Of a stretch of 64,000 nt of DNA, positions 5,650 to 53,385 are shown piece after piece. The notes below the pieces were generated by a model. That model had not been told where the DNA came from and made no database searches. It saw only the letters and a program-made list of their open reading frames with translations. A program made the translations under genes and the position numbers. Each line of letters begins with the position of its first letter. The stretch's first letter is position 1. Source of the stretch: Rhynchopus sp. YZ270_cl-10 (Eukaryota); the NCBI GenBank assembly GCA_964035575.1, contig OZ037846.1:1550001-1614000 (forward strand), given 5' to 3'.

Positions 5650-6490
5650 TGCGTAAAAAAAAAAAAAAAACAAGTAATTGCTATCGGAAAAAAACCCGGG
5701 TGTGCTGTGGAACTCCACTCTGAAAAAAATATAATCTACAACACGCCAGCATTCTGCTCTTCTGCAGGTATGCTAAAACGCTCTTCGTACGCTGGACCCA
5801 CTGGGATGGCTGTATCTGAAACTTTTAAACAGTGGGGCTGTCCTCTTCGTCCAGCACCATCTGCTCGATCGCGTTATTGGACGTAGTCTCGGCAGGCTCG
5901 ATAACCATTCGCTCGGGCGGCCTCGGCATGTTCCAGCTCGTAGTCGTCCACAGGCTCCCACGCATCGTCGTCGTCATCAGAGCAGTGCGGAAGGAACACA
6001 TAATGCACAGACGACAACGCGTCGTCGATCGCACCAGGCATCGTCAGCACCTCCAGAAAATCGCCAGGATGCTATGGTGGTTTCGAAAATCGCGCGGAGT
6101 TATCCACAGCACACCCCATTTTTTTTCTTAGCAATTAGTTGTTCTTGTTATTATTGTTTTCCACACACCTTCCTTCAACCCTTGTAGGATCAGTTCGTAT
6201 TTTTTTCGCGAAAACATGAAATTACACATTTCAAGAGAACAAAAAATTAAAAAGGGTCCCGTCAATGGGACGCCGTAAACCATAAGTCCTCAGTGTCAGC
6301 CGCATCATTTCAATGAAACCAAAAAGTGGCTTATTTGCATTTTTGGGCTCCGCCCGTGCAGCGGTGGGGTCATTTCGGAAAATTGGACAATTTTTTGACC
6401 ACTTAAATTTTGAGAAATATGAGCCCGGTTCCTTATACGTGGGGCCCATTTTTGGCCAAAATTTTTCTCAAAATCGACGAAATTAAAATT
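5650..6490. repeat. Dispersed repeat; further copies at ~13610-14330 (same strand) and ~22030-22740 (inverted)
   Basis: Near-identical blocks such as caagtaattgctatcggaaaaaa and cagcattctgctcttctgcaggtatgc in all three places; no intact shared ORF. Confidence 0.8.
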
Positions 6491-8437: not shown

Positions 8438-8980
8438 GTTATGGTAATACCCCAAAAATACCCAAAAAAAAAAATAACTTTTTCAAGAAAGGCCGCCTGC
8501 CACGTATGAGGATTAATGAAAAATACCCCACTAGCCACCGCTTTTTTTTTGTCGTTTTTTTGTCGCGACTGAATAAAAAATGAAAGATCTCCCCTTCCCC
8601 CTTACAAATGTTTATCCCCATGTGACCCAGCTCCCCCTTCCATGGAAGGCATACTAGTTATTACTTTCACGACACTAATGAATGTCATTACATTTGAAGA
8701 TTGCAGCCCCCCGACCAAGTCCTCAACAGGAGTACTGCACCGCCCGCCTGAAGTTGTCTCTCGAGCAGTCCAGATTCAGCTCGATAGGCTCGTTCTCCGT
8801 CCCCAGGTCCTTCGCAAAGTGTCGCAGAGGGTGTGTGGAGGTCCTATGCTAGCGACGGCTGCTCTGCTATGCCTAGGGGAAGGTGGTGTACGACAAGGTA
8901 GGTCCCGTACACGCAGGTTTTTGTAGCTCTGGAGCAGATCCGTCTGTGCGCAATGAATATCATGCCTCTTGTGTGGCATG

Positions 8981-9134
8981 TGTTCTGACACCTCCACCCA
9001 CCCCCATTTCCACAGGATCTTACAATGTACACAATGCGCTGTCTGGAGGGTGTGCTGTCGTTGGACGGGACACTGGACGCTCGAGCACGTCGGAAGCAGA
9101 CGTTGTTCTTCGTGATGTGCTTTGTGGCGCTGTT
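8981..9134 (+). pseudogene. 5' fragment (leader + ~36 codons) of the multi-TM adenylate cyclase, cut off by a transposon end at 9148
   Basis: Nearly identical to ~25583-25736 (ATG at 9025, MYTMRCLEGVLSLDGTLDARARRKQTLFFVMCFVAL). Confidence 0.85.
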
Positions 9135-9729
9135 TTGTACAATAGTGTAGGGGGTCTCCTGGTCAGTATATTAGCTGTCCGAAAAATTAGTAAATAAATA
9201 AAAAATGCTCTATGTGCTCAGAAACGGCACAGGGGTCCCCCAGAAAACATTTTCTGCACAATTCGTCACAACCCGCACTGGATTAGTGCCTTTTTTTGGG
9301 CCTAAAATTCAAAAATTCAAAAATGGCTTTGTACAAGGGCGTTTTTTGCGTGTTTTTTCATGATTTTTCAAAGTCGCCAAAAATCATGTAAAATACGGCT
9401 TCCCACCCAACATTCTCCCCACAGCGTCGTTCTGGCACCCATATGCCCCAAAAAAACAGGTTTTTTTATATTTTTTTCCACACCCAATGCATCATAAAAA
9501 ATACACATTTCCACCAAACTCTACTAACCCACCGCACCCACAAGAAAGTTTCTTAACTATGTGTACCTAAGTGTTCAGATCGACGCGTTTTTAAAAAAAA
9601 GTAAAACAAAATCATAAAAAATGGGGTAAAACGCCACCTGGGGTCACAAGGCCCAGGCTCCTACCTTTACAGGTAGGGGAGCTGTTGAGTGACCCATCGG
9701 AAAATGGGTCAATGTCTATTCAAGAAATC

Positions 9730-10716
9730 TTTTGAGCCGTACTGTATTGTGCCAATTGGTCGCCAGCTAAAATGTCACTAATTTTACATCTGTAACCTGT
9801 CTTATGGGTGCATGCTGCGTGCGCTGGCTGCAATTGTGATATTTTGAGTCGAATAAAATTGTACTAATTGGTCGCCAGCTAAAATGTCACTATTCGAACC
9901 AGTTCTGTCTTCTGTAACGTGTCTTATTGCGTGCGCTGGCTGCAATTGCGATATTTTGAGTCGAATTGTATTGTACTAATTGGTCGCCAGCTAAAATGTC
10001 ACTATTCGAACTAGTTCTCACATCTGTAAGCTGTCTTATGGATGCATGCTGCGTGCGCTGGCTCCAATTGAGATATTTTGAGAAGAATTGTATTGTACTA
10101 ATTGGTCGCCAGCTAAAATGTCACTAATCGAACTAGTTCTCACATCTGTAACCTGTCTTATGGGTGCATGCTGCGTGCGCTGGCTGCAATTGCGATATTT
10201 TGAGTCAGATTGTATTGTACTAATTGGTCGCCAGCTAAAATGTCACTATTCGAACTAGTTCTGTCTTCTGTTACCTGTCTTATGGGTGTATGCTGCGTGC
10301 GCTGGCTGCACTTGCGATATTTTGAGTCAGATTGTATTGTACTAATTGGTCGCCAGCTAAAATGTCACTATTTGAAGCAGTTCTGTCTTCTGTTACCTGT
10401 CTTATGGGTGTATGCTGCGTGCGCTGGCTGCAATTGAGATATTTTGAGTCGAATTGTATTGTACTAATTGGTCGCCAGCTAAAATGTCACTATTCGAACC
10501 AGTTCTGTCTTCTGTAACCTGTCTTATGGGTGCATGCTGCGTGCGCTGGCTACAATTGAGATATTTTGAGCCGAATTGTATGGTACTAATTGGTCGCCAG
10601 CTAAAATGTCACTATTCGAACCAGTTCTCACATCTGTAACCTGTCTTATGGGTGCATGCTGCGTGCGCTGGCTGCAATTGCGATATTTTGATCCGAATTG
10701 TATTGTGCTAATTGGT
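9730..10716. repeat. Tandem array A, 122-bp unit, ~8 units (first two 112 bp)
   Basis: AATTGGT at 9754, 9866, 9978, 10100, 10222, 10344, 10466, 10588, 10710. Confidence 0.95.
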
Positions 10717-10718
10717 TA

Positions 10719-11273
10719 TGAAGGGACGTGTCTTATTCTTGCGGTATATTTTGGATGATATCGGCTACGCTGCGGTGCTCGCAACAGCTGGGGGTGGTGG
10801 TGGAGATGTGATGCAGGTGCTGACATTGAGGTAAAGAACAAGGACGCTGAGTGTTGAGAAGGTGTCGGTCAGAGCAGGTGCGGAAGTGTGTGTCACAGAC
10901 AACAATCGAAACACATGTCTTATCCTTGCGGCACATCACACCGAGACTGTACGCACTCTTCTGTGCCTGCCTGAGGTGGATTGTGTGAATCAGTCAAATA
11001 CGAGCGGCTTCACTCCACTGCATGGCGCAGTGTCACAGAAACACCCAGATGTGTCGAAGTTGCTCATTGATGCAGGGGCAGACATCGAAGCCGTTAATTA
11101 CATAGGCAGGACACCTCTTCACTGTGCTTGTGAGGTTGGGGCACTCGAAATTGTGGAGATGTTGGTGAAAGCAGGTGCGGACGAGAGTGTGGTGGACAAC
11201 AAGAGTCACACATCTCTCAACATTGCGGCATATCGTGGGCATACCGAGACTGTGCGCTATCTTGTGGGCTTGC
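10719..11273 (+). pseudogene. Ankyrin-repeat gene fragment, paralogous to 1-780
   Basis: GFTPLHGAV, LIDAGADIEA, GRTPLHCAC, GHTETVRYLVGL; stops/deletions at the 5' side; 3' end truncated by the transposon end at 11274. Confidence 0.8.
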
Positions 11274-11360
11274 TAGGGGGTCTCCTGGTCAGTATATTAG
11301 CTGTCCGAAAAATTAGTAAATAAATATAAAATGCTCTATGTGCTCAGAAACGGCATAACT

Positions 11361-12210
11361 TGACATGTGTTTATGGAATTGGTCCCGTACCAAGGTGTCT
11401 TGTTCGGTGTGATTTGTGCTGAAATGGATAGATGCTGAGGGTAAATGCTGCAAGCGCTAGGTATTCCGTGGCACATAATAATTTGATATGTGTTTGTGGA
11501 ATTGGTCCCGTACCAAAGTGTCTTGTTGGGTGTGATTTGTGCTGAAATGGATAGATTCTGAGGGTAAATGCTGCAAGCGCTAGGTATTCCGTGACGCAAA
11601 TAAATTGACATGTGTTTGTGGAATTGGTCCCGTACCAAAGTGTCTTGTTGGGTGTGATTTGTGCTGAAATGGATAGATTCTGAGGGTAAATGCACATGTG
11701 TTTGTGGAATTGGTCCCGTACCAAGGTGTCTTGTTGGGTGTGATTTGTGCTGAAATGGATAGATTCTGAGGGTAAATGCTGCAAGCGCTAGGTATTCCGT
11801 GACGCAAATACATTGACATGTGTTTGTGGAATTGGTCCCGTACCAAGGTGTCTTGTTGGGTGTGATTTGTGCTGAAATGGATAGATTCTGAGGGTAAATG
11901 CTGCAAGCGCTAGGTATTCCGTGACGCAAATACATTGACATGTGTTTGTGGAATTGGTCCCGTACCAAGGTGTCTTGTTGGGTGTGATTTGTGCTGAAAT
12001 GGATAGATTCTGAGGGTAAATGCTGCAAGCGCTAGGTATTCCGTGACGCAAATACATTGACATGTGTTTGTGGAATTGGTCCCGTACCAAGGTGTCTTGT
12101 TGGGTGTGATTTGTGCTGAAATGGATAGATTCTGAGGGTAAATGCTGCAAGCGCTAGGTATTCCGTGACGCAAATAAATTGACATGTGTTTGTGGAATTG
12201 GTCCCGTACC
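11361..12210. repeat. Tandem array B, 122-bp unit, ~7 units (one 86-bp deleted unit)
   Basis: AATTGGTC at 11377, 11500, 11622, 11708, 11830, 11952, 12074, 12196. Confidence 0.95.
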
Positions 12211-12231
12211 ACAACCGCAACCGCAATAATT

Positions 12232-13470
12232 AGGGAAGACGGCTGGCAAGCGGAAGAGAGATGAGAGTGATGCAGAGAGTGATGCAAAGAAGCAGAAGAA
12301 GTCCACTGCAAAGAATGCTGCTGCGAACAGCCAGGGGAAAGAGGAGTCTGCGAGTGGGGTGAAGCGCAGCAGTGATGACGGCGCCGATGCCGAGTGGCCC
12401 GGACTCGATATCGCTATGGCTGTGAGCAAGCAGGAGTCCGCAGGCCCGGCGGCAGGGACGACACGTGCCAGTGGGTTGCCACATGGAATACAGGATACGG
12501 GGTTTCTGCACCAGGAAGAACTTCTGGTGCACAACATGTAGAGGGTTCTCCCCATTGCGCTGGACGATGTGGAAGATTCGACCTATGGATTCTCCTCTTT
12601 GCACATGGTGGGATACGAAACCTCCTTAGCAGTGTCGCCGCCAGGATTCCAGGCCAATGATGTGACGTCGCTCACCTCGCGCCCTATCGCAACTCGGGGA
12701 GACGGAGCATGTGCGTTGCATGCGTTGCTGGGGAGGCATTTGTTGCATGGCGAGATTGTGTGCCGAGGTCTGCCAGATGTGACGGAGTCACAGCTCAGGG
12801 ACAGGCCTTGGCATCATGCCAGGGTATATGCGTTGAGAGAGCTCGTCAAGCATAGTGGCTTGTTCTTGAGGTGTGCCCGACAGTTTTGCGGCTTGACTCC
12901 AAGCTCGATAAGCACTGTGCGGACGCGAAGGCCGAGTTGACCAGACTCGAGTCGCTACGAGGTGCTCTCATTTTTGAGCACGTCAAGGCTAGGGATTTGT
13001 GTGCTGAAGATTCGCAGTTCTTACTGGAAATGAGGACGCTGCATGAACTTCATCGCGAGATGAGTCACGCGGACTTCATGCCACACGTGAATCCGGATTT
13101 GTGCAATGAGGGTTACAAGACGTGTGACCACATTCGTGAACGTGTGCGCGACGTTGCTGTTGCTGATCTCTTCCCGCAGGATGAGGCTGTTCAGCGTCAG
13201 ACAGATGTGATCACGCGCAAGCAGGAGGAGTTCTATTCCTCAAGAGGCGTACAGGAAGAAGTTCGTCAGTCGGGACTATTACCTGTCTGTGAAGAAATCG
13301 AGGCAGTGGCAGTGGCGTTCGGCAAAAGGGTGCTATTGGTCCACGAGGACACCAATACTTGTGTTGTGATGAATCCGGAAGCGACCCATGTTCGCGTCAT
13401 CCTGCAACAAGGGGATACAGCAGCACCTGAGAAGTGCCATTTCTCCCTGCTGAAACAAAACTCGCGCACG
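12232..13470 (+). pseudogene. Disrupted ORF with NLS-like N-terminus and OTU-like cysteine protease motifs
   Basis: KRKRDESDAESDAKKQKK; in-frame TAG at 12539-12541; TRGDGACALHALL (Cys box); frameshift near 12880; EEIEAVAVAFGKRVLLV...VILQQG...CHFSLL (His box). Confidence 0.6.
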
Positions 13471-15330
13471 CCACCAAATTTCCAGTGTCCGCAGTGTCGC
13501 ACCACTTATTTTTTTCGCATTTTGAGGGGGGGGAAATGCAAAATGAAAACAAAATTTTGGTAGATTCACAGAATTCAGATTTTTGCTAAGGTGCTGGCAG
13601 CTGGCCCCAAAAAAAAAAAACAAGTAATTGCTATCGGAAAAAAAACGGGGTGTGATGTGGAACTCCATCCTGTAGAAATAATCTACAACACGCCCAGCAT
13701 TCTGCTCTTCTGCAGGTATGCTAACGCTCTTCGTACGCTGACAGACCCACTGGGACGCCAGCATCTGAAACGTTCAAGAAGGGGGGCTGTCCTCTTCATC
13801 CAGCACCATCTGCTCGATAGCGTTGTTGGACGTCGGCTCGGCAGGCTCGGCGTGTTCCAGCTCGTAGTTGTCCACAGGCTCCCCACATTGTCGTCGTCGT
13901 TGGAGCAGTGCGGAAGGAACACAGAATGCACAGACTACAACACATCGATCACACCAGGCGCATCAGCACCTCCAGCAAATCGCCAGGATGCTACGGTGGC
14001 TTCGAAAATCGCGCGGAGTTTTCCACAGCACACCCCGCTTTTTTCTTAGCAATTAGTTGTTCTTGTTGTTACTGTTATTTTCAACCACCTTCCTTCAACC
14101 CTTGTAGGGATCAGTTGTTATTTTTTTCGCGAAAACATGAAATTATACATTTCAAGAGAACAAATTAAAAAGGGTCCTTATTTGCATTTTTGGGCTCCGC
14201 CCGTGCAGTGGTGGGGTCAATCTCGAAAATTGGACAATTTTTTGACCACTTAAATTTTGAGAAATATGAGCCCGGTTGCTTATACGTGGGGCCCATTTTC
14301 GGCTAAAATTTTCCTCAAAATCTGGTTTTGTAAAATTGACCCTTTACTCCCCCCCCACATCGATTTCAATACTATACCTTACTTCACCTACGGTTGCCCT
14401 TACAGGGGGGTGAAGGAAGGTAAGTTGAAAATATTTTCCCCCCACATTTTTTGGTCCAGGGTCACAAAAAAAAATCTCCGATTCCTGAAACCCCAAATCC
14501 TGGCGGAAACCCTGCCGGGGGGGGGAAAAACAAAAAAAAAAAATTTTGTTTTTTTTGACAAAAACGGCCAAAAACGACAAAATAGTTTTTACGACAAAAA
14601 TTCCTTCACAAATTGTACAGGATGAGACCCCCTAAGTGCCGAACTCCGCAGTTGGATAACCGAGGAATTCTCACTTTCCGCCGGAGGCCCCCAACTTGAG
14701 CTGGGTTGGGGACCCGGGCTCGACGAGTTTCAGCGAAAAACCCCAAAACCTATATAATTCCCTGTGGAGGGGGGAAAATTTTTTTTGGGCTGACCGAGTC
14801 AAACCGATTCTGACCGAGCCAGCCCCTCGTGGGCGGAATGCTGTATAGAACCCTGGTTAGTGTTGTTTTTTCTCTTACATAGTGCTCTTGTAGCCTTTAG
14901 TGGATTGAGTGCTGGATGCTTGCTAACATCTCTTGTGGCTTTCTTACGATTTTTTCTGCTACGCTCGTCGTAGCGCTTTCTTGTGACGCTTCTCGGTTCC
15001 CTCTCTGGAACATGTATACATGTTTCTGTTTGCTCTGTCAGTACACAGCCTAGCGGCGTGTCTGCTCTTACGTATCTCTTGTTTCTTTGTCATAAAGCAG
15101 AAAAATATGCAAAATGCAGCAAACTTTAAAAAACCCCTGCACCTGTGTTGTCATGGTTTCCCTTGTTTCGAGTGCGAAACGTTTCTCCATGTATTGCACG
15201 GGAAACAACATGACAAACAGGTGCAGGGTGGTTCCGTGCTTACCATAGAACCTGGCACCTTGTGTGTCTCCCAAAAACCAAAAAAGCGTTGTGTGTGAAG
15301 TTTTGAAGGAAGGAAAAATAAAATCTGCTG

Positions 15331-21207: not shown

Positions 21208-21885
21208 ACTGTGTACTGTGTACTGTGTACTGTGTACTGTGTACTGTGTACTGTGTACTGTGTACTGTGTACTGTGTACTGTGTACTGTGTACTGTGTAC
21301 TGTGTACTGTGTACTGTGTACTGTGTACTGTGTACTGTGTACTGTGTACTGTGTACTGTGTACTGTGTACTGTGTACTGTGTACTGTGTACTGTGTACTG
21401 TGTACTGTGTACTGTGTACTGTGTACTGTGTACTGTGTACTGTGTACTGTGTACTGTGTACTGTGTACTGTGTACTGTGTACTGTGTACTGTGTACTGTG
21501 TACTGTGTACTGTGTACTGTGTACTGTGTACTGTGTACTGTGTACTGTGTACTGTGTACTGTGTACTGTGTACTGTGTACTGTGTACTGTGTACTGTGTA
21601 CTGTGTACTGTGTACTGTGTACTGTGTACTGTGTACTGTGTACTGTGTACTGTGTACTGTGTACTGTGTACTGTGTACTGTGTACTGTGTACTGTGTACT
21701 GTGTACTGTGTACTGTGTACTGTGTACTGTGTACTGTGTACTGTGTACTGTGTACTGTGTACTGTGTACTGTGTACTGTGTACTGTGTACTGTGTACTGT
21801 GTACTGTGTACTGTGTACTGTGTACTGTGTACTGTGTACTGTGTACTGTGTACTGTGTACTGTGTACTGTGTACTGTGTACTGTG
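21208..21885. repeat. Perfect (ACTGTGT)n microsatellite, ~97 copies
   Basis: Direct reading. Confidence 0.98.
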
Positions 21886-23853
21886 AGTCACCTAAAGGGG
21901 TTCTGCTCAACGAAAGTGGCCGATTTTTCAACTTACCTTCCTTCACCCCCCTGTAAGGGTAACCGTAGGTGAAGTAAGGTATAGTATTGAAATCGATGTG
22001 GGGGGGGGAAAGGGTCAATTTTACAAAACCAGATTTTGAGGAAAATTTTAGCTGAAAATGGGCCCCACGTATAAGGAACCGGGCTCATATTTCTCAAAAT
22101 TTAAGTGGTCAAAAAATTGTCCAATTTTCGAGATTGACCCCACCACTGCACGGGCGGAGCCCAAAAATGCAAATAAGGACCCTTTTTAATTTGTTCTCTT
22201 GAAATGTATAATTTCATGTTTTCGCGAAAAAAATTACAACTGATCCCTACAAGGGTTGAAGGAAGGTGGTTGAAAACAACAGTAACAACAAGGACAAGTA
22301 ATTGCTAAGGAAAAACGGGTGTGCTGTGGAAAACTCCGCGCGATTTTCGAAACCACCGTAGCATCCTGGCGATTTGCTGGAGGTGCTGATGCGCCTGGTG
22401 TGATCGATGTGTTGTAGTCTGTGCATTCTGTGTTCCTTCCACACTGCTCCAACGACGACGACAATGTGGGGAGCCTGTGGACAAAAACGAGCTGGAACAC
22501 GCCGAGCCTGCCGAGCCGACGTCCAACAACGCTGTCGAGCAGATGGTGCTGGACGAAGAGGACAGCCCCCCCCCTTCTTGAACGTTTCAGATGCTGGCGT
22601 CAGTGGGTCTGGCAGCTTACGAAGAGCGTTAGCATACCTGCAGAAGAGCAGAATGCTGGGCGTGTTGTAGATTATTTCTACAGGATGGAGTTCCACATCA
22701 CACCCCGTTTTTTTTCCGATAGCAATTACTTGTTTTTTATTTCATCCAGACCCAGCCCGGAAATCTCGAAAAGCGCGGTTTCTGGGTGTTTTACTGGGCC
22801 AAACCCTCACAGAAGCCAAAAAACCCTGTTTTTGCCCGATTTCGCCCGGATTTCACCGGGGTTGGGGACACCCCAAATAATCCAAAGAAAACCTCAGAAA
22901 TAGATGTTCGCGAAATTTCGCAAGTCAAACTTCAGCCACAATACGCATTTTGTGCATACCCTGTGACTGTAGTGGCTAGAGAACACGCACATGCAGACTC
23001 GTTCCTTGCAATTTCCAGTGTTGTGTTTATCAATGCATGCATCCAGAGGACCTCTGGTTTACGAAATCGTGGGCACTCCTGTGCAAAAATGAAGTCGGGT
23101 TTTGACCCAAAATCGGGGTGGGTGGGCCATAATTTGCTCCAAATTTGGCCGAAAATTGGGATTTTTCTGAAAATTTCATTGTGCTCAACAAAAATCCTTG
23201 CTTTTTTGAAGAATTTTCCAAAAAATATGCTATACTCCCTATGACTGGACCCAACTCCCCTCACTATTTTTTCCCCGAAAGAAGCCCCCCAAATTTTTAC
23301 CTTTTTTTAGCGTTTTTATTTAAAATCACTATTTTAGGGTACCTCCAAAAAAGCAGGCCTTTTGCTAACTTTGGGATTTTCCCCAGGAATGGCATGATGG
23401 TCAAAAAAAAATAATTTCCTGGAAAAAAAGTACATTCCGAGCTTTCCCACCTGGTAAAAGCGGTCGTCGCGCGCTTCGCGCGCGCCTCCCTGACAGCCAC
23501 AGGATGGAGAGGCGAAGGGTCAGCTTTGCAAGATAACAAAAAAAAACGGAATCTAATCCTTTATTAACGGTGCTTGGTCTTGCGCCTTACGTACACTGAC
23601 CGTACAAAATCACTACGTCTTCCAGAAGCAGGGGCTGTTGCAACGGTTGGGTCACTTTGAAATAACAATGGTAAAATTTTTGCAGCTTGGGTCAAGTTTC
23701 ATTTCTGGCTGCAAAATGCAAGGGAATCCCCTTAGACATTGTAAAATGGCACCGTAGGCAGGAAGAAAATAGCGTACAGCGCGAGCGAAGCGAGCGGGAA
23801 TTTTTTTTTTTTAGGTATACCTCCGCGAGCGCAGCGAGCAGAAAAATTTTAAG

Positions 23854-23965
23854 ATGCCATCATGCCATCATGCCATCATGCCATCATGCCATCATGCCAT
23901 CATGCCATCATGCCATCATGCCATCATGCCATCATGCCATCATGCCATCATGCCATCATGCCATC
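23854..23965. repeat. (ATGCCATC)n microsatellite, ~14 copies
   Basis: Direct reading. Confidence 0.97.
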
Positions 23966-25626: not shown

Positions 25627-27762
25627 ATGTACACAATGCGCTGTCTGGAGGGTGTGCTGTCGTTGGACGGGACACTGGACGCTCGTGCACGTCGGAAGCA
25701 GACGTTGTTCTTCGTGATGTGCTTTGTGGCACTGTGTTCGGCATCGTTGGCGGGTTTCAGGACTGTGGTGAGTCCTCAGGGACGGTACGTTTACGTTGCA
25801 TCCTACGTTCTTGGTGTTGCTGTACTACTTGCCGGTGTCGTGCTGGTCCTGTGCAGAGTCAAGCTGAACACACGCATTATCGTCTCTTGTTGCTACCTGT
25901 TGGCTCTCGCAGTCGTCGGGATCGACATCGCCGTGCGTGCCACAGAGAGAGTTGCATGGCCACTGCTCGTGCTCATCGTTGACGTGCTCCTTGTGATGGA
26001 GGTGCCCGCACACTACAGCATGGGTGTCGTCTGCTTCACACTCGTGTACTTCTTTGTCATGTGTCTCGAAGAGGTGTTCAGGTTTGGCATCCTCGACCTG
26101 CCAGGTATCGCGCCGCAGGTGTTCAGACGTGAGTACATGGCCAACAGAATCAACTGCACTGACTATCCGTGCCCTAATATTGAAGCAGTTTCCAGCCAGA
26201 TGGTTGCCGGGATGGTGTTCGTGGTGGACTTCATCGCAACGCGAGGCTTTGCACGAGCTGTCCTGAAGGAGCAGGAGTCAATGGAGCGGACGATCAACGT
26301 TGTGCAAGAGATTGCGTCGTTGCTTGCTGGCTACGACGTGGAGCAGGTGGCGGAGCTGTTGAAGGTGCATGAGGGTGACCTGCCTGAGGGGATGACAGAG
26401 GCACTGCGTAACTTGGAGGAGAACCTGCGGAAGTACCGTCCCTACCTCCCTGCTGCGCTGTTTGAGGCTGAGGTGGATGAAGACGGTGTGCAGCAGCCGA
26501 CTGTGGCACCGCCTGGGCTTGACAGCGAGACAGCAACAATTGTGTTCACAGACATCCGTGCGTCGACGTCGATCTGGGAGAATGCACCTGAGGGGATGCG
26601 TGCTGGACTGCAGATCCACAACGCTGTGATGCGTGAGGTGATGCGGATGTGTGGTGGGTACGAGGTGAAGACCATTGGCGACGCATTCATGATTGCCTTT
26701 GCATCCACTTGCGACGGTGTGGCGTTTGGGTTGCGTGTGCAGGAGCGTCTGTTTGAAGCAGACTGGCCTGCGTCTCTGCTTGAGGATGCACCAATCTGCT
26801 GTCGGCAGGGGTCGCTGTGGGGTGGTCTGACTGTGCGCATTGGTGTGAACACTGGCCCTGTGACTGTGGAGCAGAACACACTGACGGGACGGACAGACTA
26901 TCTTGGACACACAGTGAACGTTGCATCACGCCTTGAGAGCACATGCACACCTGGTGCTGTGGCTTTGCCCTCTGACCTGTGGACATCTGTCTCTGGGTCG
27001 TGCAGTGCTGTTGCAGGTGTGCCAGAAGCAGTTCACTTGAAGGGTGTGTCTGGGAGCACGTTGGTGTGCTGTGTGTGGCCTGTCTCACTTGGGGGACGAA
27101 GGGAGACACCACTTTGCGAGTTTTCTCCGCCCCCTAAGCGAATGTCCAGTGCGAAGCTGGACAAGAGTCAAAATTTGTTTCAAACGTTGAGGAGCAGATG
27201 TCCATCGTTAGCTTCGGAGGGGTCTTCACACTCACGATTGGCGTACTCGACCCGCCAGGTCTCGGGCACTGTGGGAGTTGCACAGCTTGCAGTGGGCGAC
27301 GTGACGGACAGCACAGCATTCCCACACATGAGCTCCGGACTCACAACACTGACGATCACACTGGAGCAGAGTGGAGGGAGTCTGGTGACGCTGCTTGGGA
27401 ACTGTGTGTGTGTTGGGTGGAACGTGTCGCGTTCTGCACCTGCACACATGGAGAACGCGATACGGTTTGTGCAGCGCATGTCTGTGAAGTCTGCACTGAA
27501 CGGGGCTGGTCTTGCAAGCGGTCCTGTGCAGCACGGGGATGTTGGTGCACGGAGCCAGCGCTTTGTGACTGTGATGGGGGATGTTGTGCGTCGGAGTTGG
27601 GCGCTGTGCGAGGAGGCTGTGCGTGACGGGGTTGTGTGTCTGTACGAGCCTCCTGAAGGGACAACACTGCCGTCTGCACTTGAAGACGTTCTTGTCCAGC
27701 ACAAGGGGTCTGGCTACAGAGTCGTTGAGTCAGACAACAAAGAACGAGACAGAGTATTTTAG
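25627..27762 (+). CDS. Multi-TM class III adenylate cyclase (711 aa) with a degenerate second cyclase-like domain, copy 1
   Basis: About 6 hydrophobic N-terminal segments; IVFTDIRAST, GYEVKTIGDAFM, VRIGVNTG, DYLGHTVNVASRLES; C-terminal SGPVQHGDVG...VMGDVV lacking catalytic residues. Start may be Met at 25636. Confidence 0.92.
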   Translation: MYTMRCLEGVLSLDGTLDARARRKQTLFFVMCFVALCSASLAGFRTVVSPQGRYVYVASYVLGVAVLLAGVVLVLCRVKLNTRIIVSCCYLLALAVVGIDIAVRATERVAWPLLVLIVDVLLVMEVPAHYSMGVVCFTLVYFFVMCLEEVFRFGILDLPGIAPQVFRREYMANRINCTDYPCPNIEAVSSQMVAGMVFVVDFIATRGFARAVLKEQESMERTINVVQEIASLLAGYDVEQVAELLKVHEGDLPEGMTEALRNLEENLRKYRPYLPAALFEAEVDEDGVQQPTVAPPGLDSETATIVFTDIRASTSIWENAPEGMRAGLQIHNAVMREVMRMCGGYEVKTIGDAFMIAFASTCDGVAFGLRVQERLFEADWPASLLEDAPICCRQGSLWGGLTVRIGVNTGPVTVEQNTLTGRTDYLGHTVNVASRLESTCTPGAVALPSDLWTSVSGSCSAVAGVPEAVHLKGVSGSTLVCCVWPVSLGGRRETPLCEFSPPPKRMSSAKLDKSQNLFQTLRSRCPSLASEGSSHSRLAYSTRQVSGTVGVAQLAVGDVTDSTAFPHMSSGLTTLTITLEQSGGSLVTLLGNCVCVGWNVSRSAPAHMENAIRFVQRMSVKSALNGAGLASGPVQHGDVGARSQRFVTVMGDVVRRSWALCEEAVRDGVVCLYEPPEGTTLPSALEDVLVQHKGSGYRVVESDNKERDRVF

Positions 27763-29494: not shown

Positions 29495-30689
29495 GTCCGA
29501 CTCAGCCGTTTTTGGCTGGGACCCAACGTACAAAAAACTCATTTTTAAACTTCTGGCCATCTCCAAGGCAATTGCGGGTGAAAAACACCCTCAGAGTGGG
29601 TCACAGGGGGCCTGTGGGTCGAAAAACGACCCAGAAGCCACCCCAGAATACAAAAAAATGGAAAAAAATAGTGAAAAAACGGCTTTTTTCAGGTTTTGGC
29701 CATGTTGGGCAAAACAGCGATTTTTCAAGAAAAAAACCAAAAAACGGCATATTTTTTGACATCACAAAGCCTCCTTTGGCACAAATATACCCCAAAAGTG
29801 GCCTGTGAGTCCATTCCAACCTGTTTTGGACATATTTGACACTTTTGGAAGTGTTTTTTTGGTGTTTTCACGCTGAAAAACACCCCCAAAAAATCCTTGG
29901 ACGGTCCTTGGACAGCACTGCCACCATTGCTCCGACCACATTCTCGGCCATATTTTTGCTTAAAACCCCCGAAAAAGGGCCCCCGGAACCCCAATCTTTC
30001 CAAATTTCCACCTCATCCCCACCCAAACACCGCAAACACACGATAGAAAATCGTCTTAAAAAACACACTTTTTTCAAAAAGGGTATTATGGAACCCGCCT
30101 GATGACCTTTTTGAAAAAAGTGTGTTTTTTAAGACGATTTTCTATCGTGTGTTTGCGGTGTTTGGGTGGGGATGAGGTGGAAATTTGGAAAGATTGGGGT
30201 TCCGGGGGCCCTTTTTCGGGGGTTTTAAGCAAAAATATGGCCGAGAATGTGGTCGGAGCAATGGTGGCAGTGCTGTCCAAGGACCGTCCAAGGATTTTTT
30301 GGGGGTGTTTTTCAGCGTGAAAACACCAAAAAAACACTTCCAAAAGTGTCAAATATGTCCAAAACAGGTTGGAATGGACTCACAGGCCACTTTTGGGGTA
30401 TATTTGTGCCAAAGGAGGCTTTGTGATGTCAAAAAATATGCCGTTTTTTGGTTTTTTTCTTGAAAAATCGCTGTTTTGCCCAACATGGCCAAAACCTGAA
30501 AAAAGCCGTTTTTTCACTATTTTTTTCCATTTTTTTGTATTCTGGGGTGGCTTCTGGGTCGTTTTTCGGCCCACAGGCCCCCTGTGACCCACTCTGAGGG
30601 TGTTTTTCACCCGCAGTTGCCTTGGAGATGACCAGAAGTTTAATAATGAGTTTTTTGTACGGTCATTTACTAGGGAGTCGGACCCCCTA
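29495..30689. mobile_element. Palindromic foldback element 1 (arms ~29527-30082 and ~30106-30661; left terminus degraded)
   Basis: ~555-bp near-perfect inverted arms, ~20-nt spacer; right terminus AGTCGGACCCCCTA at 30676-30689. Confidence 0.85.
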
Positions 30690-31934: not shown

Positions 31935-33134
31935 TAGGGGGTCCGACTGTGAGTAAAATTACCGTACAAAAAACTCATTATTAAACTTCTGGTCATTTCC
32001 AAGGCAACTGCGGGTGAAAAACACCCTCAGAGTGGGTCACAGGGGGCCTGTGGGCCGAAAAACGACCCAGAAGTCACCCCAGAATACAAAAAAATGGAAA
32101 AAAATAGTGAAAAAACGGCTTTTTTCACGTTTTGGCCATATTGGGCAAAATAGCGATTTTTCAAGAAAAACCCAAAAAAGCGGTTATTTTTTGACATCAC
32201 AAAGCCTCCTTTGGCACAAATATACCCCAAAAGTGGCCCGTGAGTCCATTCCAACCTGTTTTGGACATATTTGACACTTTTGGAAGTGTTTTTTTGGTGT
32301 TTTTACGTCAAAAAAAATACCCTGGCAATACCCTGACCGCGCTCCGGCAGCATTCCAGCATGCTGTTTGACCCATATAGGGGTCAAGAAATGGCCAAAAA
32401 CCCCTGAAAAAGGACCCTGGGAGCCCAGATAGTTCCAAATTTCCACCACATCCCCACCCAAACACCGCAAAAACACGACAGAAAATCGTCTTAAAAAACA
32501 CACTTTTTTCAAAAAGGTCATTATGGAGCCTGTCTGACGACCTTTTTGAAAAAAGTGTGTTTTTTAAGACGATTTTCTGTCGTGTTTTTGCGGTGTTTGG
32601 GTGGGGATGTGGTGGAAATTTGGAACTATCTGGGCTCCCAGGGTCCTTTTTCAGGGGTTTTTGGCCATTTCTTGACCCCTATATGGGTCAAACAGCATGC
32701 TGGAATGCTGCCGGAGCGCGGTCAGGGTATTGCCAGGGTATTTTTTTTGACGTAAAAACACCAAAAAAACACTTCCAAAAGTGTCAAATATGTCCAAAAC
32801 AGGTTGGAATGGACTCACGGGCCACTTTTGGGGTATATTTGTGCCAAAGGAGGCTTTGTGATGTCAAAAAATAACCGTTTTTTTGGGTTTTTCTTGAAAA
32901 ATCGCTATTTTGCCCAATATGGCCAAAACCTGAAAAAAGCCGTTTTTTCACTATTTTTTTCCATTTTTTTGTATTCTGGGGTGACTTCTGGGTCGTTTTT
33001 CGGCCCACAGGCCCCCTGTGACCCACTCTGAGGGTGTTTTTCACCCGCAGTTGCCTTGGAAATGACCAGAAGTTTAATAATGAGTTTTTTGTACGAAATT
33101 TTATACACAAGTCTATTAGGAGTCGGACCCCCTA
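31935..33134. mobile_element. Palindromic foldback element 2, complete
   Basis: TAGGGGGTCCGACT ... AGTCGGACCCCCTA; arms 31963-32519 and 32539-33095; 19-nt spacer; flanks G10C and G11C. Confidence 0.9.
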
Positions 33135-35303: not shown

Positions 35304-36695
35304 CATGGCTGTGTAACTTAAGTTAAATAAAAAACTTAAGTTTTCTCCGAAATCCTCCGGAAAATTTAGGCGACTTAAGCTACTAAAAAAAAAAACTTAA
35401 ATTAAAAAACTTAGGTTTTCGAAAAAAAAACTTAAGTTTTTTTAGAAAAAAAACGTAACTTAAGTTTTTATTTTTAAAAAACAGCTTAAGTTACCAACTT
35501 AAGTCACTTAAGTTAACTTAAGTTACCGTTTTTTTTTTTTTTTTTTGCTTGGGCGATGAACATCACTGAAGGGGGCGGATGCCTGGTGAAGCTTTTAAAC
35601 GCCGGCATTTGCATTTCCGGAATCCGTCCGGCCAGTGGTGGGGTCAATTTGCCGAAATGGACAAGTTCTTGTTTTTGGTAAATTTCCGCACAGTACACAG
35701 TACACAGTACACAGTACACAGTACACAGTACACAGTACACAGTACACAGTACACAGTACACAGTACACAGTACACAGTACACAGTACACAGTACACAGTA
35801 CACAGTACACAGTACACAGTACACAGTACACAGTACACAGTACACAGTATGTAATCTATGGTGGTCAAAGTGCAAAATTCCTTCGTCAATGCATTTTTTG
35901 AGTAACTGTTATACCTAGAGAATACGGTCACATCACTCTTCAGACCACCTGCAGCTTCACCACCAAGCATGTTCCCAGATCACGTGATTTTGACCAAAAT
36001 TTTGGGGTCCAGATCACGAAAAAAAAAAGGGGTATGGGGTGCGTTTTTGGGCGTTTTTGTCGATCGCATCGTCCGATTCGGTGCGATTGCAGAAAGTGAT
36101 GGGGTCATTTTGGAAAAATGGACAAAATTTTATTGACTTAAATTTTTGCAAAATATGAACCCATACTCGTAAACAAGGGTCATTTTCAGGTTTGAAAACC
36201 CAACTTCAGATGAAATTGTGGTGTTTTGAGTGGGAACACAGTAGCGCCGCAGGCGCACGGTACCCAACTTTTGTCTTTTTTCTTTTTCCCTTTTCTCTGC
36301 TTTCTTTTGATTGTGCGAGCCGATTGCTCTCCACGGTGGGGTCACATGTGTGTGCAAAAACACTCTGAAGTACCCTTACTATGAAATATGAGATTCTCTG
36401 GTTTTAGTAAGGAAAAACCCAAGCAAAATCGTCAAAAATCTACGGTAGTCGGTAGGCGCGTAGCGCGACCCCCGTGCGCACCCCACTTTTTTTTTTTTTG
36501 TTTTTCCCGGAAAAGTACCGCAATTGACGGATCGCGATCCGTGCGAACCGTGGTGGTGACTCATCTGAAAAAATATTGAGTAGAACAGCTGCAGATCGTG
36601 TGCGAGCACTTTTTTTTTTTTTTTTTTTTTTTTTTCCAAAATTCCTGAAAACCAGATCATGATCACGATCTGGGAAAAAGCTTGTTCACCACCCA

Positions 36696-37957: not shown

Positions 37958-40093
37958 ATGTACACAATGCGCTGTCTGGAGGGTGTGCTGTCGTTGGACG
38001 GGACACTGGACGCTCGTGCACGTCGGAAGCAGACGTTGTTCTTCGTGATGTGCTTTGTGGCACTGTGTTCGGCATCGTTGGCGGGTTTCAGGACTGTGGT
38101 GAGTCCTCAGGGACGGTACGTTTACGTTGCATCCTACGTTCTTGGTGTTGCTGTACTACTTGCCGGTGTCGTGCTGGTCCTGTGCAGAGTCAAGCTGAAC
38201 ACACGCATTATCGTCTCTTGTTGCTACCTGTTGGCTCTCGCAGTCGTCGGGATCGACATCGCCGTGCGTGCCACAGAGAGAGTTGCATGGCCACTGCTCG
38301 TGCTCATCGTTGACGTGCTCCTTGTGATGGAGGTGCCCGCACACTACAGCATGGGTGTCGTCTGCTTCACACTCGTGTACTTCTTTGTCATGTGTCTCGA
38401 AGAGGTGTTCAGGTTTGGCATCCTCGACCTGCCAGGTATCGCGCCGCAGGTGTTCAGACGTGAGTACATGGCCAACAGAATCAACTGCACTGACTATCCG
38501 TGCCCTAATATTGAAGCAGTTTCCAGCCAGATGGTTGCCGGGATGGTGTTCGTGGTGGACTTCATCGCAACGCGAGGCTTTGCACGAGCTGTCCTGAAGG
38601 AGCAGGAGTCAATGGAGCGGACGATCAACGTTGTGCAAGAGATTGCGTCGTTGCTTGCTGGCTACGACGTGGAGCAGGTGGCGGAGCTGTTGAAGGTGCA
38701 TGAGGGTGACCTGCCTGAGGGGATGACAGAGGCACTGCGTAACTTGGAGGAGAACCTGCGGAAGTACCGTCCCTACCTCCCTGCTGCGCTGTTTGAGGCT
38801 GAGGTGGATGAAGACGGTGTGCAGCAGCCGACTGTGGCACCGCCTGGGCTTGACAGCGAGACAGCAACAATTGTGTTCACAGACATCCGTGCGTCGACGT
38901 CGATCTGGGAGAATGCACCTGAGGGGATGCGTGCTGGACTGCAGATCCACAACGCTGTGATGCGTGAGGTGATGCGGATGTGTGGTGGGTACGAGGTGAA
39001 GACCATTGGCGACGCATTCATGATTGCCTTTGCATCCACTTGCGACGGTGTGGCGTTTGGGTTGCGTGTGCAGGAGCGTCTGTTTGAAGCAGACTGGCCT
39101 GCGTCTCTGCTTGAGGATGCACCAATCTGCTGTCGGCAGGGGTCGCTGTGGGGTGGTCTGACTGTGCGCATTGGTGTGAACACTGGCCCTGTGACTGTGG
39201 AGCAGAACACACTGACGGGACGGACAGACTATCTTGGACACACAGTGAACGTTGCATCACGCCTTGAGAGCACATGCACACCTGGTGCTGTGGCTTTGCC
39301 CTCTGACCTGTGGACATCTGTCTCTGGGTCGTGCAGTGCTGTTGCAGGTGTGCCAGAAGCAGTTCACTTGAAGGGTGTGTCTGGGAGCACGTTGGTGTGC
39401 TGTGTGTGGCCTGTCTCACTTGGGGGACGAAGGGAGACACCACTTTGCGAGTTTTCTCCGCCCCCTAAGCGAATGTCCAGTGCGAAGCTGGACAAGAGTC
39501 AAAATTTGTTTCAAACGTTGAGGAGCAGATGTCCATCGTTAGCTTCGGAGGGGTCTTCACACTCACGATTGGCGTACTCGACCCGCCAGGTCTCGGGCAC
39601 TGTGGGAGTTGCACAGCTTGCAGTGGGCGACGTGACGGACAGCACAGCATTCCCACACATGAGCTCCGGACTCACAACACTGACGATCACACTGGAGCAG
39701 AGTGGAGGGAGTCTGGTGACGCTGCTTGGGAACTGTGTGTGTGTTGGGTGGAACGTGTCGCGTTCTGCACCTGCACACATGGAGAACGCGATACGGTTTG
39801 TGCAGCGCATGTCTGTGAAGTCTGCACTGAACGGGGCTGGTCTTGCAAGCGGTCCTGTGCAGCACGGGGATGTTGGTGCACGGAGCCAGCGCTTTGTGAC
39901 TGTGATGGGGGATGTTGTGCGTCGGAGTTGGGCGCTGTGCGAGGAGGCTGTGCGTGACGGGGTTGTGTGTCTGTACGAGCCTCCTGAAGGGACAACACTG
40001 CCGTCTGCACTTGAAGACGTTCTTGTCCGGCACAAGGGGTCTGGCTACAGAGTCGTTGAGTCAGACAACAAAGAACGGGACAACGTGTTTTAG
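37958..40093 (+). CDS. Multi-TM adenylate cyclase, copy 2 (near-identical to 25627-27762)
   Basis: Part of duplicated block 24888-~27772 = 37219-~40103 (offset 12,331); visible protein differences only near the C-terminus (VQH/VRH, DRVF/DNVF). Confidence 0.92.
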   Translation: MYTMRCLEGVLSLDGTLDARARRKQTLFFVMCFVALCSASLAGFRTVVSPQGRYVYVASYVLGVAVLLAGVVLVLCRVKLNTRIIVSCCYLLALAVVGIDIAVRATERVAWPLLVLIVDVLLVMEVPAHYSMGVVCFTLVYFFVMCLEEVFRFGILDLPGIAPQVFRREYMANRINCTDYPCPNIEAVSSQMVAGMVFVVDFIATRGFARAVLKEQESMERTINVVQEIASLLAGYDVEQVAELLKVHEGDLPEGMTEALRNLEENLRKYRPYLPAALFEAEVDEDGVQQPTVAPPGLDSETATIVFTDIRASTSIWENAPEGMRAGLQIHNAVMREVMRMCGGYEVKTIGDAFMIAFASTCDGVAFGLRVQERLFEADWPASLLEDAPICCRQGSLWGGLTVRIGVNTGPVTVEQNTLTGRTDYLGHTVNVASRLESTCTPGAVALPSDLWTSVSGSCSAVAGVPEAVHLKGVSGSTLVCCVWPVSLGGRRETPLCEFSPPPKRMSSAKLDKSQNLFQTLRSRCPSLASEGSSHSRLAYSTRQVSGTVGVAQLAVGDVTDSTAFPHMSSGLTTLTITLEQSGGSLVTLLGNCVCVGWNVSRSAPAHMENAIRFVQRMSVKSALNGAGLASGPVQHGDVGARSQRFVTVMGDVVRRSWALCEEAVRDGVVCLYEPPEGTTLPSALEDVLVRHKGSGYRVVESDNKERDNVF

Positions 40094-45753: not shown

Positions 45754-45907
45754 TGTCCCTTCCTCTGACTCTCTATTGCTTAGTTTGTGTACAATTCTTT
45801 TTGGAAGAGGGTTTTTGTGGTTAAACATCGAACAAGCCAGGCGTGCAGTTTTTCAACACAAAACACCCCAAACCTCCCACACACAGGCGTCACCTGTATA
45901 CTGTGCA

Positions 45908-48040
45908 ATGCGCTGTCTCGACAGTGCGCTGTCTCTTGACGGAACGCTAGACGCGCCAAGCATCCGCATCCGGAATCTCTTTCTAAGTCTTAATGTAGCT
46001 GCCTTCGTGGGGGTGCTGCTGGTGGCATCAGTGCAGCTAGCGAGCTTGCGCATGAAGTACCTATACTGGGTGGCTGCGTTCGTGCTTGTGTCGTCCACGC
46101 TGTCTGCAGTGCTCATGATTCTGTGCAAGTGCAAGCTGACCACGAACCGCATTCTGGTACTCTGCTCCGTGTACGGCGTGACGCTGTTGTCCGTCGATTT
46201 GAGTGCGCGCAGTGAGTACACTCTCCGCTGGCCGATGATGGTGCTGATGGTGGACTTTCTCCTCGTCATGCAGGTACCCACACGGTACAGCACAGCTGTC
46301 GTGGTGTGCACGCTGGTGTATCTTGCCGTCACCGCTGCTGAAGAAGTCTTCAGGTTTGGTCTGCTGGACATGCCAGGGCTTGTCTCCCAGGCGGACCGTC
46401 GTGAGTACGTAGACAGCTTGGGTGACTGCGCTGCCCTGCCTTGCAAGCAGAAGAAAGCGTTGTCCACCTTTGCGCTTGCGGCGTCTGTGTTTGTTGTCGA
46501 CTTCATCGCAACGCAAAGCTTTGCACGTGGTCTCCTCAAGGAGCAGGCACAAATGCAACGCACAGTCGCGACCGTGCAAATCATCGCGTCGCTCCTAGCT
46601 GGCTACGACGTGGAGCAGGTGGCGGAGCTGTTGAAGGTGCATGGGGGTGACCTGCCTGAGGGGATGACAGAGGCACTGCGTAACTTGGAGGAGAACCTGC
46701 GGAAGTACCGTCCCTACCTCCCTGCTGCGCTGTTTGAGGCTGAGGTGGATGAAGACGGTGTGCAGCAGCCGACTGTGGCACCGCCTGGGCTTGACAGCGA
46801 GACAGCAACAATTGTGTTCACAGACATCCGTGCGTCGACGTCGATCTGGGAGAACGCACCTGAGGGGATGCGTGCTGGACTGCAGATCCACAACGCTGTG
46901 ATGCGTGAGGTGATGCGGATGTGTGGTGGGTACGAGGTGAAGACCATTGGCGACGCATTCATGATTGCCTTTGCATCCACTTGCGACGGTGTGGCGTTTG
47001 GGTTGCGTGTGCAGGAACGTCTGTTTGAAGCAGACTGGCCTGCGTCTCTGCTTGAGGATGCACCAATCTGCTGTCGGCAGGGGTCGCTGTGGGGTGGTCT
47101 GACTGTGCGCATTGGTGTGAACACTGGCCCTGTGACTGTGGAGCAGAACACATTGACGGGACGGACAGACTACTTCGGACACACAGTGAACATTGCGTCA
47201 CGCCTTGAGAGCACATGCACACCTGGTGCTGTGGCTTTGCCCTCTGACTTGTGGACGTCTGTCTCTGGGTCGTGCAGTGCTGTTGCTGGTGTGCCAGAAG
47301 CAGTTCACTTGAAGGGTGTGTCTGGGAGCACGTTGGTGTGCTGTGTGTGGCCTGTCTCGCTTGGGGGACGAAGGGAGACACCACTTTGCGAGTTTTCTCC
47401 GCCCCCTAGGCGAGTCTCCAGTGCGAAGCTGGACAAGAGTCAGAATTTGCTTCAAACGATGAGGAGCAGATGTTCGTCGTTAGCTTCGGAGGGGTCTTCA
47501 CACTCACGATTGGAATACTCGACCCGCCAGGTCTCCGGCACTGTGGGAGTTGCACAGCTTGCAGTGGGCGACGTGACACACAACACAGCTTTCCCACACA
47601 TGAGCTCCGGACTCACAACACTGACGATCGCACTGGAGCAGAGTGGAGGGAGTCTGGTGACGCTGCTTGGGAACTGTGTGTGTGTTGGGTGGAACGTGTC
47701 GCGTTCTGCACCTGCACACATGGAGAACGCGATACGGTTTGTGCAGCGCATGTCTGTGAAGTCTGCACTGAACGGGGCTGGTCTTGCAAGCGGCCCTGTG
47801 CAGCACGGGGATGTTGGTGCACGGAGCCAGCGCTTTGTGACTGTGATGGGGGATGTTGTGCGTCGGAGTTGGGCGCTGTGCGAGGAGGCTGTGCGTTACG
47901 GGGTTGTGTGTCTGTACGAGCCTCCTGAAGGGACAACACTGCCGTCTGCACTTGAAGACGTTCTTGTCCAGCACAAGGGTTGTTACCGTGTCCTTGAGGC
48001 ACAAAGCAGCAAAGCTAGGGAATGCGACAACGTGTTTTAG
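45908..48040 (+). CDS. Multi-TM adenylate cyclase, copy 3 (divergent membrane region, near-identical cyclase region)
   Basis: ATG at 45908 (MRCLDSALSLDGTLD) aligns to MRCLEGVLSLDGTLD of copies 1/2; same catalytic motifs; TAG at 48038-48040. Confidence 0.92.
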   Translation: MRCLDSALSLDGTLDAPSIRIRNLFLSLNVAAFVGVLLVASVQLASLRMKYLYWVAAFVLVSSTLSAVLMILCKCKLTTNRILVLCSVYGVTLLSVDLSARSEYTLRWPMMVLMVDFLLVMQVPTRYSTAVVVCTLVYLAVTAAEEVFRFGLLDMPGLVSQADRREYVDSLGDCAALPCKQKKALSTFALAASVFVVDFIATQSFARGLLKEQAQMQRTVATVQIIASLLAGYDVEQVAELLKVHGGDLPEGMTEALRNLEENLRKYRPYLPAALFEAEVDEDGVQQPTVAPPGLDSETATIVFTDIRASTSIWENAPEGMRAGLQIHNAVMREVMRMCGGYEVKTIGDAFMIAFASTCDGVAFGLRVQERLFEADWPASLLEDAPICCRQGSLWGGLTVRIGVNTGPVTVEQNTLTGRTDYFGHTVNIASRLESTCTPGAVALPSDLWTSVSGSCSAVAGVPEAVHLKGVSGSTLVCCVWPVSLGGRRETPLCEFSPPPRRVSSAKLDKSQNLLQTMRSRCSSLASEGSSHSRLEYSTRQVSGTVGVAQLAVGDVTHNTAFPHMSSGLTTLTIALEQSGGSLVTLLGNCVCVGWNVSRSAPAHMENAIRFVQRMSVKSALNGAGLASGPVQHGDVGARSQRFVTVMGDVVRRSWALCEEAVRYGVVCLYEPPEGTTLPSALEDVLVQHKGCYRVLEAQSSKARECDNVF

Positions 48041-48872: not shown

Positions 48873-49045
48873 CCATAGTACCATAGTACCATAGTACCAT
48901 AGTACCATAGTACCATAGTACCATAGTACCATAGTACCATAGTACCATAGTACCATAGTACCATAGTACCATAGTACCATAGTACCATAGTACCATAGTA
49001 CCATAGTACCATAGTACCATAGTACCATAGTACCATAGTACCATA
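48873..49045. repeat. (CCATAGTA)n microsatellite, ~21 copies
   Basis: Direct reading. Confidence 0.97.
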
Positions 49046-52633: not shown

Positions 52634-53385
52634 CAGGGCGCGCGCTAACTTTTCGGAAATTTCCCGAAAAAATGGATATCGGGTCCAAAAAAATGTACCT
52701 ACAGGAAGTATGTGAAGGGGGGCAGAAAAATCAGGGTCATGTTACATTTCCGAGAAAATCCCGGGCTGTGGTGGGGGATATACGGAAAAATGGACAAAAT
52801 TTTGGTGACTTAAATTTTCACAAAATATGAACCCATACTCGTAAACAAGGGTCATTTTCAGGTCTTTCGGACAGCCAGTACACAGTACACAGTACACAGT
52901 ACACAGTACACAGTACACAGTACACAGTACACAGTACACAGTACACAGTACACAGTACACAGTACACAGTACACAGTACACAGTACACAGTACACAGTAC
53001 ACAGTACACAGTACACAGTACCGTGACTTCACCGGCCAACATCGGAAAACACCGGCAAACCCGCAAACCCGAAACATGGTCAAAATCAGGTGGAATATAC
53101 ATAAGTACATCATGGGGGGGTAGGGAACAGGTAGCGCCGCAGGCGCACGGTACCCAACTTTTTTCTTTTTTCTTTCCCCTTTTCTCTGCTTTCTTTTGAT
53201 TGCGCGAGCCGATTGCTCTCCACGGTGGGGTCACATGTGTGTCCAAAAACTATCTGAAGTGCCCTTACTGTACAATATGGGATTCTCTGATTTTCTAAAG
53301 GAAATCGTGTAATCAAAAAATTTTTGTACCGCGAAAAAACCTCGAAAAAACCGGGTGTGAGGGTGTGGATTTAGCGCGCGCCCTG
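52634..53385. mobile_element. hAT-type element containing a (CAGTACA)n tract at 52876-53021
   Basis: TIR CAGGGCGCGCGCTAA; 8-bp TSD CACTAGAA (52626-52633, 53386-53393). Confidence 0.85.

Follow-up and report, generated by a model that had tools for sequence, protein, structure and literature searches.

Two 122-bp tandem arrays with shared short boxes in a probable diplonemid transposon

Two short tandem arrays, A and B, found in a 64 000-nt stretch of contig OZ037846.1 from Rhynchopus sp. YZ270_cl-10 (the window) are, from comparison of their sequences, probably diverged versions of a single 122-bp internal repeat of a non-autonomous diplonemid transposon, in which two short boxes have probably been kept as protein-binding sites. 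The alignment of the two arrays supports the conclusion that they are related and that conservation along the unit is uneven. Both were found inside one 5.5-kb composite element (bases 9148–14634) that is likely to be one broken DNA transposon, and this transposon context is firmer than the protein-binding step. The window is diplonemid nuclear DNA; it includes an ornithine aminotransferase that matches the one from Rhynchopus euleeides at 81% and those of four other named diplonemids at 72–77%.

Units, boxes and register of the two arrays

The arrays were delimited using Tandem Repeats Finder and by splitting at anchors (Table 1), and from the unit lengths of A and B together 11 of the 15 units are 122 bp. 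Identity between the units of one array is 88–95% in A and 98–100% in B. Both arrays begin shortly before box 1 and stop within or shortly after it. Indels were found in four of the 15 units. Of three large deletions, two (in A2 and B3) take away part of box 2. Units 1 and 2 of A (9743–9966) are both short by exactly 10 bp, roughly a helical turn, with the gap at a different place in each.

Table 1. Positions in the window of the two arrays, of the boxes in one unit of each, and of the other parts of the composite element
Feature	Position	Strand	Description
Candidate target-site duplication, left copy	9144–9147		AGTG, 4 bp
Outer left end	9148–9729	+	~580 bp; 11-bp terminal inverted repeat at 9148–9158
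Array A	9730–10716	+	8 anchor-to-anchor units (112, 112, 122 × 6) and partial ends
Array A, one unit	10455–10576		box 1 core 10466–10473 and 10485–10488; box 2 10528–10547
Ankyrin-repeat gene fragment	10717–11273	+	~75% identical to the ankyrin gene at 34–780
Inner left end	11274–11355	+	82-bp copy of the start of the left end; directly abuts the ankyrin homology
Array B	11356–12211	+	7 anchor-to-anchor units (123, 122, 86, 122 × 4) and partial ends
Array B, one unit	11697–11818		box 1 core 11708–11715 and 11727–11730; box 2 11770–11789
Broken OTU-like gene	12212–13480	+	5′-truncated; one in-frame stop, one frameshift
Nested unrelated repeat	13611–14431		96.6% identical to 21925–22742
Right end	14432–14634	+	~200 bp; terminal inverted repeat at 14624–14634
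Candidate target-site duplication, right copy	14635–14638		AGTG; opens another dispersed repeat, also found near 44490 and 49940

When the consensus units of A and B were aligned without gaps, 53 of the 122 positions were identical, which was the highest score among all 244 registers (runner-up 44); the gapless register applies to the consensus only. A preliminary description had proposed the common 122-bp period and the gapless alignment, and both were confirmed for the consensus, with indels in single units. Its hand counts were also correct, both the 53/122 overall and the 10/39 and 6/29 in the two segments between the boxes, which together give 16/68 identities, the level expected by chance (26%). 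It had named a comparison with shuffled sequences as the check on the alignment, and in this control, using dinucleotide shuffles each scored at the best of 244 registers, the mean was 45.5 (sd 2.1) and 14 of 3000 reached 53. A gapped local alignment of A and B scored 80, compared with 50.6 ± 7.2 for shuffles, only one in 1000 of which reached 80. The matches were found to be clustered when runs of at least four were counted (p=0.002), and p values for the two best windows were 0.08 at 15 nt, 0.006 at 20 nt and 0.0004 at 23 nt, all of these tests and windows having been picked post hoc with the alignment already seen.

As there are only two families, the boxes are defined from a single pairwise comparison. 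They had been described as lying about half a period apart, which agrees with a measured distance of 62 nt from AATTGGTC to GGGT, and the half-units themselves are not similar to each other, the best self-match being 44/122 at offsets of 51 and 71. Box 1 of array B includes a perfect 5-bp inverted repeat with a 5-nt gap, which is imperfect in A and would suit a dimeric protein. Resemblances to spliced-leader and Pol III box sequences, seen by eye, were dropped because B lacks them.

A profile search of the window detected no arrays beyond A and B, and the boxes are absent from the ends of the element. No third array family was found in the window or in the viral, metagenome and prokaryote collections scanned. 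The two-box pattern was found at no loci in viral contigs, and 11 single matches were recovered from metagenome contigs, 10 of which belong to one GC-rich gene family and none of which had a 122-bp period or a profile match. The left-end pattern was likewise not found in viral contigs. A three-copy periodic pattern had no match in viral contigs and found one tandem array in prokaryote genomes, which was taken as chance. The prokaryote match (bases 970–1293 of L012, a Marinimicrobium genome) is a tandem run of three tRNA-like genes, identical to one another and repeating every 122 bp, read by eye as what are presumably tRNA-Lys genes.

The composite element and its surroundings

The 11-mer that opens the outer left end at 9148 is found again at 11274, and an exact inverted copy closes the right end, for which about 0.0014 occurrences are expected by chance within 6 kb. 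This exact 11-bp pair provides the terminal inverted repeat expected of a non-autonomous TIR DNA transposon, and no transposase open reading frame was recognized in the element. The arrays had been described as each following the same left end, at 9148 and 11274. The end is indeed the same, but the two copies have only 82 bp in common (98.8% identical), and array A starts about 580 bp downstream of its copy while array B follows directly. The two left ends have differing flanks within the window. Two of the three termini are flush with unrelated flanking homology, that of the ankyrin gene at 11273 and that of another repeat at 14635, and the 11 bases to the left of 9148 match neither the adjoining cyclase gene nor anything certain. 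The AGTG flanks are a single instance that may be due to chance, with no duplication around the inner left end, and a TA reading is possible. Candidate superfamilies are an Academ-like type (Academ termini are TAG), a TA-targeting type or, less likely, the HLE2 type.

A second family was found at 31935–33134, with TAGGGGGT ends and 564-nt arms but no clean 3–4-bp duplication. This and a related foldback at 29527–30689, with arms of 556–564 nt and TAGGGGGTCCGAC ends, lie within G/C runs, and their first eight terminal bases are common with those of the element at 9148–14634. The repeat nested in the element belongs to a dispersed 820-bp repeat with internal inverted arms (13611–14431, 21925–22742 and 5659–6475).

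The broken gene carried by the element is homologous to P0122, P0129 and P0130. Homologues are few, with two besides itself among 1.84 billion representatives, together with one cluster of six members. GDGxC and HxSL motifs are common to the broken gene and its homologues, and we take these Cys and His motifs to be OTU-like. The Pfam OTU model matches a second domain of the homologues only, with E values of 0.05–0.15 that are below the cut-off. The longest homologue, P0130, has QGKT and YVALSR upstream of the OTU-like part, which we take to resemble Pif1 helicase motifs. The helicase assignment was not confirmed by Pfam or PDB, and longer forms of P0130 with a helicase were sought but not found, a result of little weight. 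The predicted structures of two homologues were of low confidence (mean pLDDT 35 and 39), and fold searches with the second returned nothing informative. In ENA contigs, P0129–P0134 represent a multi-copy protein with two OTU-like motif sets, helicase-like motifs upstream and no Pfam match above the cut-off, and judging from these motifs they are possibly the product of a divergent Helitron-like gene.

The locus is surrounded by ankyrin, receptor-type cyclase and LRR genes. Several intron-poor adenylate/guanylate cyclase genes were found (25627–27762, 37958–40093, 45776–48040, 58452–62166 and 8977–9136), one of which adjoins a solute-binding-protein domain, and the last of these, a 160-bp 5′ cyclase fragment, abuts the left end of the element. 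Perfect 7- or 8-bp microsatellites of up to 97 copies are also present (21208–21885, 35689–35849, 52876–53021, 48873–49045 and 23854–23965). Ankyrin-repeat sequence (10717–11273 and 34–780) is very abundant in public sequencing runs, with a summed depth far above that of element-specific contigs. Such depth points to a large expansion of ankyrin sequence, to whose spread transposons may contribute.

Ten such runs were listed, from three studies and none recorded as RNA; seven contain part of the stretch and five (X1–X5) were compared. Contigs of X1 and X2, from two studies, span the junction of array A with the ankyrin fragment without differences, as one X2 contig does for that of the left end with array B, and one of the bridging runs may be the source of the window itself. 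Bridging contigs were seen for these two junctions and not for those of the ankyrin fragment with the inner left end or of array B with the OTU-like gene. One X4 contig, with 30 letters on its short side, joins position 10845 to array B, and its sequence suggests a variant that would not include the inner left end. In X1 and X4, another copy was found in which an A unit is preceded by the same left-end sequence (30 nt upstream of A) with one change. Contigs identical to the interior of the element had depths of 456–499 (X1 and X3) versus 77–239 in the divergent ankyrin contigs listed, a weak hint that there are several copies of the element, as contig depth is not copy number. When contigs were aligned to one A unit, 537 of 554 were at least 90% alike, in a comparison with an 80% identity floor at which families as distant as B is from A could not appear. 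All four of the variant sites listed on the A unit across four runs were found outside the boxes.

Constraint on the boxes and competing explanations

Forty-one distinct substitutions were found within the arrays. The 33 box positions hold five of them, compared with an expectation of about 11, and three of these five are adjacent in one degenerate unit. In array A, the depletion of box substitutions had a Fisher p value of 0.048. The arrays have four indels per 41 substitutions, and in a simulation that allowed indels freely at this rate both inter-box segments kept their length in 0.3–0.7% of cases. Across all settings length was kept in 0.2–8%, the 8% arising at the lowest rate tried, under a simple model of one pair that assumes saturation of the inter-box DNA (at least 1.5 substitutions per site). 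Under this model, the result favours past selection on the spacing of the boxes. The constraint on spacing that had been claimed is therefore likely, insofar as length retention is improbable under free indels, but two deletions cut box 2.

In the explanation we prefer, an ancestral element would have carried a 122-bp internal repeat, and in each subfamily slippage or unequal exchange may have brought one unit to fixation. Separate fixation of units would leave the inter-box DNA at chance identity between families and uniform within each. An A-type left part and a B-type element would then have come to lie about 550 bp apart around the ankyrin fragment, and the composite could have moved as one by means of its outer left end and its only right end. 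Selection on the mobile ancestors would have preserved the boxes and their spacing because a protein binds them, and the transposase of the element is the most likely candidate. Against this explanation are the presence of only two families, the dependence of the box clustering on window size (p=0.08 at 15 nt) and the deletions in box 2.

A more specific possibility, which we regard as doubtful, is a phased two-box docking array, in which a sequence-specific protein would occupy boxes about 60 bp apart in each 122-bp unit, the spacing being fixed to the base while the intervening DNA turns over. If so, the arrays would be needed in cis for transposition or within a host chromatin structure, and would possibly be the seed of centromeric repeats in diplonemids; we know of no description of diplonemid centromere DNA. 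At the other extreme, the arrays may be homologous passengers without function, whose boxes are the residue of uneven mutation. The loss of parts of box 2 in A2 and B3, the non-significant clustering in 15-nt windows, the definition of the boxes by two sequences only and their failure to recur in the ends of the element would fit such a neutral relic. It is nevertheless unlikely, as inter-box DNA that is at chance identity (16/68) has kept its exact lengths, an outcome seen in 0.2–8% of cases under free indels, and the substitutions within the arrays are depleted in the boxes. Still harder to credit is an error of assembly that fused repeats with no relation to each other. In its favour are the patchwork nature of the region, with breakpoints where the arrays end, and the possibility that the window's own source is among the best-matching runs, but contigs from two studies bridge the A/ankyrin junction and one bridges the left end/B junction, all without differences, and the similarity of A to B does not depend on the assembly, so that the chance of an artefact is negligible.

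The preliminary description had suggested a processed small-RNA cassette combining a constant scaffold with exchangeable segments, and CRISPR- or TIGR-like guide arrays would be of this kind. The fixed period and the two boxes half a period apart speak for such a cassette, as does the position of the array ends, which lie at or close to box 1. It is very improbable, however, as the segments do not vary from unit to unit, either within A and B or in the 537 of 554 contigs that were at least 90% alike, and near-identity of the units within a family is not what spacer cassettes would show. In addition, folding z-scores were between −1.1 and +1.3, rotated controls averaged the same value as a joint fold of the two sequences (−4.3), the three Rfam matches lay outside the arrays and did not reach their gathering scores, and ARAGORN found no tRNA genes. 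The inter-box segments had no match above chance elsewhere in the window. A further explanation classes the complete element with the rolling-circle elements of Helentron/HLE2 type, in which case the arrays would correspond to the central tandem repeats of HINE and DINE-1; on balance it is improbable. The QGKT and YVALSR motifs of P0130, presumably akin to those of Pif1 helicases, would suit it, as would the T|T read on the minus strand at one terminus, the right end. Short inverted repeats of 11–16 bp at both ends, as expected of HLE2, are present at 11 bp, and these, like the array placed immediately after the left flank, fit the HINE anatomy as described in the available parts of two papers (PMC7492417, PMC4067079). 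Helitron-like elements can also have OTU domains, according to a further source seen in extract (PMC11417382). However, the 3′ stem-loop and the T|T insertion of HLE2 were both missing. The left termini are preceded by G and C, not T, and no stem-loop of the element's own follows the right repeat, because the sequence after 14634 belongs to another dispersed repeat. Moreover, the repeats are terminal, rather than subterminal, at two flush boundaries, and the helicase call has no support from Pfam or PDB.

Relation to known systems and significance

The preliminary description had stated that no described system has this signature, but it can be recognized in the accessible text on the oyster Cg_HINE elements (PMC7492417) and on satellites of Meloidogyne (PMC3694981). 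In Crassostrea gigas, the CL4 monomers of Cg_HINE (170 bp) share only two conserved segments with CL1 and CL2 (167 and 166 bp), related flanks are found with unrelated repeats, and there are double arrays, a minority of which are separated by up to ~1.2 kb (PMC7492417). As in Cg_HINE, where the end repeats are given as 11–12 bp, the arrays described here are short, satellite-like and located within a non-autonomous element behind a common flank. The subterminal repeats, 3′ palindrome, microsatellite, oligo-T targets and duplication-free insertion reported for Cg_HINE in the same text are not seen here, and the 122-bp unit, the diplonemid host and the second left end between the arrays also set this element apart.

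The satellites of Meloidogyne chitwoodi and Meloidogyne fallax have 32–64% identity, with two short boxes kept and monomer junctions at the boxes (PMC3694981), and related repeats with a 19-bp box are bound by CenH3 (PMC8097292), as far as the portions available of these papers describe. Here, similarly, the array ends lie in or near box 1. In contrast, the Meloidogyne arrays are long or centromeric and have a CENP-B-like box, whereas those found here are shorter than 1 kb, inside a transposon and in gapless register. The divergent monomers of similar length, shared short boxes and homogeneity within each family correspond to a satellite library, though one with two families only.

Among cut-and-paste transposons, Merlin elements include internal tandem repeats (PMC8101967), and in Merlin and Tetris (PMC4079207) the tandem repeats lie near one end and differ between copies or families, as they do here. 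The GG termini and 8–9-bp duplications of Merlin (PMC8101967) were not seen in this element, and the sections available of the Merlin and Tetris sources make no mention of shared boxes at fixed spacing. AcademX transposons generate 3–4-bp duplications, according to the part of the source available (PMC10045372). The TAG...CTA ends with, in one case, a candidate 4-bp flanking duplication are like those of AcademX, but the ends can also be read as TA followed by GGGGG, and the related foldback at 31935–33134 has no clean 3–4-bp duplication. A literature search that included the D. papillatum genome paper (PMC10161547) and keywords in its supplement found no description of this element, though the repeats section of Additional file 1 of that paper may hold more. 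As stated in the part of the paper available, a rigorous transposon survey is still wanting (PMC10161547).

The arrays described here are a diplonemid example of a known pattern, in which satellite-like arrays are carried by a transposon with short boxes kept and the remainder diverged, and the exact retention of spacing is their cleanest feature. There is no sign of a new guide-RNA system. The element points to a transposon family that was probably recently mobile and carries gene fragments, in a group for which, to judge from the same genome paper (PMC10161547), there is no rigorous transposon catalogue. Whether boxes of this kind have a function, a long-standing question, becomes testable on a small element with defined ends.
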